In this document: piece after piece, positions 17,854 through 18,965 of the stretch | Numbering within the stretch: position 1 is the stretch's first letter | How the letters are laid out: each line of letters begins with the position of its first letter | DNA from: a virus | Length of the DNA: 25,266 nucleotides | IMG/VR virus record: IMGVR_UViG_3300021590_000007 | Strand: one strand, 5' to 3' | The notes under the pieces: model-generated | Databases searched by the model: none | The model's input: the letters and a program-made list of their open reading frames with translations, nothing else | What the model was told of the DNA's origin: nothing | Program-made: the position numbers and the translations under genes

Positions 17854-18237
17854 TCAATACCTCCTCATTAATATTTCTTTTGTTTCTCGCATCATTTCAT
17901 TAACTGCAATAGCAGACATAGTCAATTGCTCTTTAAGCCATAAAAGATAATCTAATACTCTTTTACTCAATGGACTACTACAGCTCTCCCAATATATATT
18001 TTCTTTCTCTACGCTTCGTATCATATCATCAAATATCTTTTCCTCTCTAACTAAAAAGTTTCTGAAATCAATTATTTTACTTGTTATATCATAGTTTTTA
18101 CCCTCATTATAGAATACATAAAAAACATCTGAAGTGTGTGGTACGACTATAACTTGTTTGAGTAATATTTCTCCTCGTTCTTCTCTTTCCAAGAATTTGC
18201 TTAACGATTCGATCCTTTCAAATCTTTTTACTTTCAT
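17854..18237 (-). CDS. Hypothetical protein
   Basis: 127 aa, GGAGGT RBS. Confidence 0.8.
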   Translation of the reverse strand: MKVKRFERIESLSKFLEREERGEILLKQVIVVPHTSDVFYVFYNEGKNYDITSKIIDFRNFLVREEKIFDDMIRSVEKENIYWESCSSPLSKRVLDYLLWLKEQLTMSAIAVNEMMRETKEILMRRY

Positions 18238-18262
18238 ATTTTTATACCTCCCTCTATAAGGA

Positions 18263-18406
18263 TGGATGGGGCAGGAGTCGAACCTGCATTCCCGGACAGA
18301 ATTTGGTGATCGGACTTCCCACCTTCCTGCTAGAAGGCTTCCATCCTATCTCTTTAATAAAAAGGATACGAACAATGCCCGGATCCTACCGTTGGACGAC
18401 CCATCC
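18263..18406 (-). tRNA. tRNA or tRNA-like gene with a 72-nt insert in the anticodon loop; isotype unresolved (nominal UGU)
   Basis: Acceptor GGATGGG/CCCATCC plus discriminator A; U8; D-arm GTCC-AACGGTA-GGAT; anticodon stem CGGGC/GTCCG; T-arm GCAGG-TTCGACT-CCTGC; no encoded CCA. A TTTATAT box lies about 40 nt upstream. Confidence 0.8.
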
Positions 18407-18461
18407 CAGATACTTTTCTTAACGCCTTTATGGACATACAAAAATATAAATAAGATCATAT

Positions 18462-18965
18462 CTAGATATAATTTAGAACGTACTTTTCTATTAACTCTCG
18501 ATGTTCATTCTTATCCTGTGTTGCAAATTTTCTGTGTATATCTTTATCAATGAAAACTACGTGTACATCATCAATATGATGTGCTTCCGTATTGGCTCTC
18601 TTTTCATTCAGTGGTTGAAAGCCGTATCCTCTCTGCCATGCACTATACTTTGAAAAAATATAAGGGGGTTTAATTACCCCCATTTGTATAAGACTAATTA
18701 GTTCACTAAAGCTTCCCCGCTTCCTCTGTCTTCTCCTTCTTTTCTTCAGGGCGGGGCTACCCAACCCAGGGCAAGTTCTTCTATACCTACTCTTCTGAGC
18801 AGGAAGTTCAGATGGGGAGGCTTCCACCATACTTCCCTTGCCCTCGGTGGACTTTTGATTTCCACCTTCCTCCAATAGAGTTCCTATTGTCACACTTTTT
18901 TTATTACGATTTATTTGATTAGTGTTACTTAGTCCTTTACTGGTCTTTCTGTTATCCATTGCCAT
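18462..18965 (-). CDS. HNH-like (beta-beta-alpha-Me) endonuclease domain protein with low-complexity N-terminus
   Basis: C-terminal RGYGFQPLN...EAHHIDDVHVVFIDKDIHRKF...NEH. GAGGAGGT RBS 8 nt before the Met codon at 18959. Confidence 0.55.
   Translation of the reverse strand: MAMDNRKTSKGLSNTNQINRNKKSVTIGTLLEEGGNQKSTEGKGSMVEASPSELPAQKSRYRRTCPGLGSPALKKRRRRQRKRGSFSELISLIQMGVIKPPYIFSKYSAWQRGYGFQPLNEKRANTEAHHIDDVHVVFIDKDIHRKFATQDKNEHRELIEKYVLNYI
18653..18885 (-). ncRNA. Candidate GC-rich structured RNA embedded in the HNH-like ORF
   Basis: About 53% GC over 18711-18880 (hand count) versus roughly 30% in flanking genes. Helices: CAATAG/CTATTG, GGTGGA/TCCACC, AGGGCAAG/CTTGCCCT, GGAAGT/ACTTCC, ATGG/CCAT, GGGTT/AGCCC, CCCCGC/GCGGGG, then GGGGG/CCCCC and a U-tract. 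G-U pairs favour the minus strand. Confidence 0.55.

Follow-up and report, generated by a model that had tools for sequence, protein, structure and literature searches.

A gene with the shape of a tRNA lies within the replication operon of a virus, and to judge from its own sequence and that of its homologues it almost certainly cannot read codons. The gene was found in a stretch of 25,266 nucleotides from the IMG/VR record IMGVR_UViG_3300021590_000007, referred to below as the window, whose sequence is found mostly in hydrothermal-vent metagenomes. It folds as a tRNA, its stems are conserved and covary among homologues, its anticodon loop is unusable, the bulge-helix-bulge (BHB) motif is absent, its insert is polymorphic in a modular way, and it holds a fixed position before a ribosome-binding site. 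The RNA appears to be specific to one family of viruses, and its anticodon loop seems to have been replaced by a fast-evolving, modular and folded insert that would be retained. We tentatively favour the reading that this is a non-decoding tRNA-derived RNA, which would act both as a processing signal for RNase P and RNase Z placed 25 nt before the next gene and as a scaffold for a variable RNA domain. A non-decoding viral tRNA body, swappable loop inserts and a fixed, portable position before a ribosome-binding site form a combination that, as far as the literature shows, is undescribed.

The window is a virus-like replication module of 32% G+C in which nearly all genes run on the minus strand. 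Its products include an anaerobic ribonucleotide reductase, a primase-polymerase, a RecA-like ATPase, an ERCC4/XPF nuclease with helix-hairpin-helix domains, ClpP and YopX proteins. An archaeal host is likely, as indicated by the XPF-type nuclease, the TATA-like boxes, an archaeal-type tRNA-Asn in a related virus and a relative of the reductase NrdD in a Woesearchaeota bin (51%); a search of the ESM Atlas for the host returned viral clusters only. The ORF upstream of the tRNA-shaped gene was considered as an HNH nuclease and this was rejected, as neither Pfam nor PHROG gave a match even at E = 10.

The first-pass annotation, which was made from the letters of the window, had proposed a tRNA-shaped gene with a 72-nt insert at 18263-18406. 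These coordinates are exact, the gene lies on the minus strand and its arms are intact (Table 1). The two strands of the anticodon stem are separated by 79 nt instead of the usual 7, which corresponds to a 7-nt loop plus a 72-nt insert at the canonical position 37/38, and the base between the D arm and the anticodon stem is C26. All tRNA arms persist in the minimum-free-energy fold, in which the insert hairpins also form (z = -1.99), and both hairpins described by that annotation are recovered in it as UAUCCUUU/AAAG-A-GAUA and CCUUC(U)/(G)GAAGG.

Table 1. The tRNA-shaped gene, its insert and its flanks, with coordinates of the window; for the insert classes the size is the distance between the two strands of the anticodon stem.
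Feature	Position	Strand	Remarks
Whole tRNA-shaped gene, 144 nt	18263..18406	(-)	G1 = 18406; discriminator A73 = 18263; CCA not encoded
Acceptor stem GGAUGGG / CCCAUCC	18400..18406 / 18264-18270	(-)	7 pairs, 3 with compensatory changes in homologues
Compensatory changes in the acceptor stem			A3-U70 / G3.U70 / G3-C70; G5-C68 to A-U; G7-C66 to A-U
D arm GUCC-AACGGUA-GGAU	18383..18397	(-)	cells 100% paired; 13:22 is C-G, U-A or U-G
Anticodon stem CGGGC / GUCCG	18377..18381 / 18293-18297	(-)	100% paired; most homologues have CGGAC
Seven bases replacing the anticodon loop, AUUGUUC	18370..18376	(-)	A32, U37 and C38 invariant across homologues; 33-36 hypervariable
Insert, 72 nt, class A form	18298..18369	(-)	counted from canonical position 37/38
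Variable loop GGAAU and T arm GCAGG-UUCGACU-CCUGC	18271..18292	(-)	from sequence and fold
Insert hairpin 1, UAUCCUUU-UUAUU-AAAGAGAUA	18347..18368	(-)	U-rich loop; classes A and A'; wobble-compatible changes
Core module GGAU-GGAA-G-[CCUUC loop GAAGG]-U-GGGAA-GUCC	18313..18347	(-)	P2 within a GGAA/GGAA purine-rich internal loop and a short outer helix P1
Insert hairpin 3, GGUG...CACC	18305..18323	(-)	class A only; holds a second GUCCG; GAUG/CAUC in L129
Insert classes A and A'			79-85 nt; three hairpins; the window is class A
Insert class B			74-78 nt; closing 8-bp helix UUCAUCGC/GCGAUGAA, with uncompensated mismatches in some copies
Insert class C			40 nt; AU-rich
Upstream spacer	18407..18461	(-)	TATA-like box UUUAUAUUUUU at 18450-18440, a putative promoter; leader ends ...AAAAGUAUCUG; kept in nearly all homologues, identity 0.80
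Trailer into the next gene, 25 nt, UCCUU...GGGAGG	18235..18262	(-)	AUG 18237-18235; can fold as a hairpin sequestering the ribosome-binding site

Homologues were collected from viral and metagenomic sequence. Scanning IMG/VR for an exact pattern turned up two contigs and a third came from a search based on proteins, while a scan of metagenomes with the variable loop and T arm yielded 54 loci, of which 50 hold the tRNA-shaped element. There are 36 distinct full-length homologues, from hydrothermal-vent viral and metagenome contigs, and they share one genomic slot. The search pattern fixed the variable loop and T arm, so that their invariance among the homologues was imposed by the search and is no evidence of selection. 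A pattern made from the 5' half met in IMG/VR only the same three contigs and chance coding matches. Relatives of the element were not found in a phage database, and no matching cellular tRNA was found among the genomes of about 185,000 species, where the pattern met only unrelated tRNAs, mostly bacterial tRNA-Tyr. An ancestry from bacterial tRNA-Tyr was considered and rejected: a genome scan with the T arm and the 3' strand of the acceptor gave mostly type-II tRNA-Tyr, largely of Lachnospiraceae, and the likeness is confined to the acceptor and T arm, being elsewhere no better than that of shuffled sequences (171/500 score as high). The metagenome loci L131, L152, L158 and L160 match the pattern but are unrelated dense arrays of 8-21 tRNA genes from other phages or bacteria, in which a tRNA-Arg shares the segment CCGGGAAUGCAGGUUCGA. 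One related viral contig, IMGVR_UViG_3300021513_000057 (L168, G003), carries at 1494-1617 on the minus strand an archaeal-type tRNA-Asn(GUU) with the perfect anticodon arm CUCGC/UUGUUAA/GCGAG. This tRNA directly follows a homologue of the window's upstream ORF, is miscalled by ARAGORN as Ile(GAU), and holds at 27/28 a 49-nt insert that forms a long hairpin and contains GUGAUGA; a BHB motif was looked for there and not found.

The alignment of these homologues argues that the tRNA body is under structural selection. Across the 36 sequences the 21 pairs of the cloverleaf are formed in 99.7% of 756 cells, and pairing drops to 21-52% in a control where the 3' partners are slid. Both sides have changed at four pairs (3:70, 5:68, 7:66 and 13:22); at 3:70 the alternatives are A-U (21 copies), G.U (14) and G-C (1). 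Mean pairwise identity is 0.89 in the 5' half, which the search left unconstrained, compared with 0.80 in the upstream spacer and 0.74 in the downstream coding sequence. The least conserved parts are the 7-nt loop (0.69) and the insert (0.66).

The insert occurs in distinct classes, all of which have the last ~20 nt in common, and one copy (L136) is a recombinant with a 5' part of class A' and a 3' part of class B. The core of the long forms, about 35 nt in length, consists of a P2 hairpin of 5-6 bp, GGAA on both strands and an outer helix GGAU/AUCC. P2 is found as CCUUC/GAAGG, CCUCC/GGAGG or CCUCU/AGAGG, giving compensatory change at two pairs. A covariance model of this core (R1) scores the window at 43.4 bits and finds 39 full-length matches of 35-56 bits at homologous loci, one per locus; no copy was found outside the tRNA-shaped gene, including in 80 IMG/VR loci chosen by a loose pattern. 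The P1-P2 module cannot be essential because class C does without it. Within one vent sample several insert classes can occur between the same conserved flanks. Contigs of class C join these flanks in samples that also hold the class A allele of the window, and several alleles therefore co-circulate in one vent sample. In runs X1, X2, X3 and X8, the summed contig depth over window positions 18150-18520 is higher over the tRNA halves than over the insert.

Other features of the insert may be mentioned here. A tract of U4-U8 follows the anticodon stem by 12-20 nt in every insert class, reaching U8 in A'; in the window it lies in the U-rich loop of hairpin 1 (18357-18363). In archaea such tracts are long enough to act as transcription terminators or as binding sites of Sm-like proteins, and the tract could make the tRNA-shaped element an attenuator for the downstream genes. 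The GGAA/GGAA loop was considered as a K-turn or box C/D motif and rejected: a GA next to the C-helix is not found in any register, and no small RNA of Rfam matches. A GC-rich island in the upstream ORF shares with the core the words UAUGGUGGAAGCCU and GGAGGAAGGUG (18818-18831 and 18863-18873 in the island, 18335-18348 and 18320-18330 in the core). A link between the two was rejected, since there are only two words of 11-14 nt in permuted order and a collinear match is absent. Given this permutation, the helix-plus-purine-loop motif could form in the island with other connectivity, and the covariance model gives no collinear match there.

The surroundings of the gene are conserved together with it. 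In nearly all copies the spacer and TATA-like box lie upstream, preceded by the same upstream ORF, and the 25-nt stretch UCCUCAUAGGAGGUAUAAAAAUAUG that leads to the next gene is almost invariant. The trailer UCCUCAUAGGAGG is the most conserved flank (0.91) and stays with the tRNA-shaped gene even before different downstream genes (about 35 loci). One compensatory change in its hairpin, U-A for C-G, was seen by eye (L149, L163, L159). The next gene's AUG lies 25 nt beyond the discriminator base, the strand is the same throughout the operon, and there is no room for another promoter. The tRNA-shaped gene must be co-transcribed with the next gene because only these 25 nt separate it from the start codon. 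Further irregularities were seen at the borders. The gene lies between the arms of a 19-nt inverted repeat with 79% complementarity (18233-18251 and 18432-18450), through which the TATA-like region can pair with the region from ribosome-binding site to AUG; it may be a chance match between AT-rich signals, or a stem in the read-through transcript that processing would open. Many copies of classes B and A' (L115, L132, L134, L156 and others) have about 8 extra bases, GGGAUUGU or GGAAUUAU, before G1, and these resemble a partial duplication of the 5' acceptor strand. The element of G003 starts with A, forming an A1-C72 mismatch, directly after the AT-rich box.

From this arrangement a course of expression can be proposed. 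RNase P and RNase Z recognise an intact stack of acceptor and T arm. The gene sits inside the replication operon behind its own TATA-like box, from which transcription would begin, and the host's RNase P, RNase Z and CCA-adding enzyme would recognise the stack, so that the transcript would be cut on both sides. Such cuts would leave the downstream mRNA with a defined 5' end at the hairpin of the ribosome-binding site, and would also free a stable L-shaped RNA displaying the insert. In the long forms the P1-GGAA/GGAA-P2 module of the insert is probably a binding site for a protein.

Programs for finding tRNAs and RNA families handle the gene poorly. ARAGORN at default settings did not call it in the 25-kb window; with introns allowed, its sole call in the window at the default threshold was Asn(GUU), with the anticodon stem one base out of register, and orthologous copies of the gene received ten isotype names. 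Annotators should therefore be aware that intron-tolerant tRNA finders can give ten isotypes to one orthologous gene. At gathering thresholds no Rfam family matched, including canonical tRNA (RF00005), and the sole weak match was to tRNA-Sec (22.7 bits against a cut-off of 47), which takes an internal GGAUGGA as a second 5' acceptor strand. A second tRNA of type-II or Sec-like form, starting at this GGAUGGA and sharing the 3' half, was considered and rejected: class B does not conserve the internal 5' strand, and an acceptable anticodon arm does not form. ARAGORN found neither a tmRNA nor a tag reading frame at the gene.

In a working tRNA, U33 and the anticodon are expected to be the most conserved bases. 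In the 36 homologues the stem is followed by A-Y-N-N-N-U-C, most class B copies have C at position 33, and positions 34-36 hold ten triplets (UAA, UUG, UGU, CGU, CAU, UGA, UCG, UAC, CAA and AGU). UCY always stands immediately before G39. A canonical cut at 37/38 in the window would leave the loop AUUGUU|U with U at 37. Direct enumeration of every split of the 7-nt loop gave no purine at 37 in any of the 36 copies, the base being U or C each time, and U33 together with purine 37 is unattainable in any homologue. The abnormal loop without purine 37, pointed out in the first-pass annotation for the canonical and the alternative register, is thus confirmed for every split.

The splice motif is equally incomplete. 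The hBHBh' motif has a central helix of 4 bp, two 3-nt bulges on opposite strands and outer closing helices. At the canonical site of the window the central helix H, AUUG/AAAU, forms 3 of 4 pairs and the inner closing helix h' has 1 bp, in agreement with the imperfect BHB first noted there, and none of the 36 copies has a complete canonical BHB. With all copies read in the canonical register, the central helix forms three pairs in 18 of them, two in 17 and a single pair in one, and no copy reaches four; h' has 0-2 bp. When positions 33-35 change, the opposite strand shows no compensation, and therefore the pairing of H is not selected. An all-register scan of six representative copies revealed no conserved alternative BHB; the candidates were wobble-rich and their products were not tRNAs. 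In class B a 7-nt strand and the 3-nt UCC are opposed across one junction, a geometry that is neither BHB nor BHL. A two-intron model for class A, in which the first GUCCG would give the loop AUUGU|AA, was rejected: it fits only four class A sequences, lacks BHB support and fails in A' and B. No insert-free DNA allele was found among the homologous loci and the contigs of vent samples. The original proposal of a non-decoding tRNA mimic carrying an RNA domain has therefore held up, given the absence of a complete BHB, the hypervariable positions 33-36, the conserved arms and the ten isotypes assigned by ARAGORN. The results lend no support to any one of the particular functions that it named (decoy, guide carrier or ribosome binding) over the others.

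These results have to be weighed against the reading of the gene as an intron-containing viral tRNA with a relaxed or unconventional splice motif, which we consider unlikely but the first alternative to keep in mind. A broad-specificity endonuclease, of the alpha2-beta2 type (Crenarchaeota, Nanoarchaeota) or the epsilon2 type (ultrasmall archaea), would cleave the transcript near 37/38, and joining of the halves by RtcB would yield a 72-nt tRNA whose loop, A-Y-NNN-U-Y, is unusual; the insert, once cut out, might become a cargo small RNA, possibly in circular form. The insert does lie in the anticodon loop, at or beside the canonical archaeal intron position, G39 has the 3-nt UCY before it in all copies, and H can form 2-3 of its 4 pairs. 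Among named relatives of the window's NrdD, the closest comes from a genome bin of Woesearchaeota (DPANN), at 51% identity, and the tRNA-Asn(GUU) of the related virus, with its 49-nt insert at 27/28, no BHB and a perfect anticodon arm, suggests that some route of removal exists. An insert at the canonical intron site, together with the odd insert in that tRNA-Asn, means that the lineage may remove inserts unconventionally. However, the 4-bp central helix occurs in none of the 36 copies, h' never exceeds 2 bp, H pairing is not maintained as 33-35 change, and the class B junction has neither known geometry. The spliced product would also carry a pyrimidine at 37 whichever copy it came from, and C33 in many cases, near-identical bodies differ in their anticodon, and an insert-free DNA allele was not found. 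If the insert were spliced after all, its splice signal would lie outside the BHB rule. A decaying tRNA pseudogene or attachment-site relic, carried along without a function of its own, is highly improbable. The lack of a usable anticodon loop would suit it, as would the silence of default ARAGORN and of Rfam, but the acceptor and D stems show compensatory changes with 99.7% of cells paired, the 5' half (0.89) is more conserved than the flanking DNA, and all 36 distinct copies occupy the same slot. The possibility of decay had been raised from the start, and besides the paired body with its compensatory changes, the long inserts with their covarying helix speak against it. For an attachment site in particular, a tyrosine integrase was looked for in the three related viral contigs, which are partial, and not found, and no cellular tRNA match exists among the ~185,000 species.

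Another reading places the gene in a conflict between virus and host or between viruses, as a hypervariable RNA on a tRNA scaffold that would act as a decoy or inhibitor of a tRNA-targeting defence or of a host RNA-binding factor. The tRNA body would then provide stability and enzyme recognition, positions 33-36 and the swappable insert would be under diversifying selection, and the target would be an anticodon nuclease, a toxin RNase or some other host RNA-binding factor. The most variable bases, in an otherwise conserved scaffold, are indeed those that anticodon nucleases read; several insert alleles coexist in one sample, and recombinants exist; and the conserved flanks make a portable unit before different genes. 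Yet relaxed constraint on an unpaired linker explains the variability equally well, inspection of the alignments revealed no covariation of 33-36 with other columns, and no defence or counter-defence gene was identified near the tRNA-shaped gene. We therefore hold this reading to be rather improbable; if true, it would mean a new class of viral anti-defence RNA in archaea. The combined processing signal and scaffold, which we tentatively prefer, has its own difficulties. The D arm and anticodon stem are conserved, although a pure processing signal would need neither, the insert lies exactly at the canonical archaeal intron site, and the tRNA-Asn of the related virus also has an odd insert. If the insert is retained, the gene would be a natural tRNA scaffold that displays RNA domains and a tRNA-like punctuation mark in the operon of an archaeal virus.

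How the gene relates to known systems can be seen by comparison with several of them. Archaeal viruses carry tRNA genes, some with small introns, and archaeal intron-containing pre-tRNAs have BHB introns at 37/38 that are cut by EndA and joined by RtcB. The viral gene resembles these pre-tRNAs in having a complete body interrupted in the anticodon loop, a probable origin in an archaeal tailed virus, and a folded insert longer than the loop. It differs from them in that the 4-bp central or closing helix is found in 0 of 36 copies, the product would have no purine 37 and often no U33, the triplet 34-36 is not conserved among orthologues, and the insert is swapped as cassettes. In the archaeal virus HFTV1, the intron of tRNA-Thr(CGU) is 5 nt long (bioRxiv 10.64898/2026.09.13.751334). 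Compared with tmRNA, the gene shares an acceptor and T-arm part joined to a large non-tRNA segment, but it has an anticodon stem and no tag frame, and G3.U70, the alanine identity pair, is present in only about 40% of copies. It also differs from tRNA-Sec (RF01852): the score is 22.7 bits against 47, the UCA anticodon is absent, and class B shows no conservation of the internal 5' strand.

Closer parallels are found among tRNA-like RNAs that do not decode. Plant mitochondrial t-elements and the mascRNA/MALAT1 tRNA-like structure are processing signals cut by RNase P and RNase Z. As in these, the viral gene has a non-decoding tRNA fold in a longer transcript beside an mRNA, with an intact stack of acceptor and T arm and a degenerate anticodon region. 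t-elements and mascRNA are minimal and have no large structured insert, whereas the viral gene also keeps the D arm and anticodon stem, and its cleavage is a prediction. The TMER transcripts of murid herpesvirus 68 join a tRNA-like part to a pre-miRNA, and here a tRNA-like body that is not aminoacylated is used as an expression scaffold. Like the TMERs, the vent-virus gene joins a virus-encoded tRNA-like body to another folded RNA unit, and by analogy it would be processed by tRNA enzymes of the host. The cargo hairpins of TMERs follow the tRNA-like body, while the cargo of the vent virus lies inside the anticodon loop, and the domain of life and the polymerase differ. By analogy with these systems, the tRNA-shaped gene would thus work, through its predicted processing, like t-elements, mascRNA and the herpesviral scaffolds, and yet it belongs to none of them.
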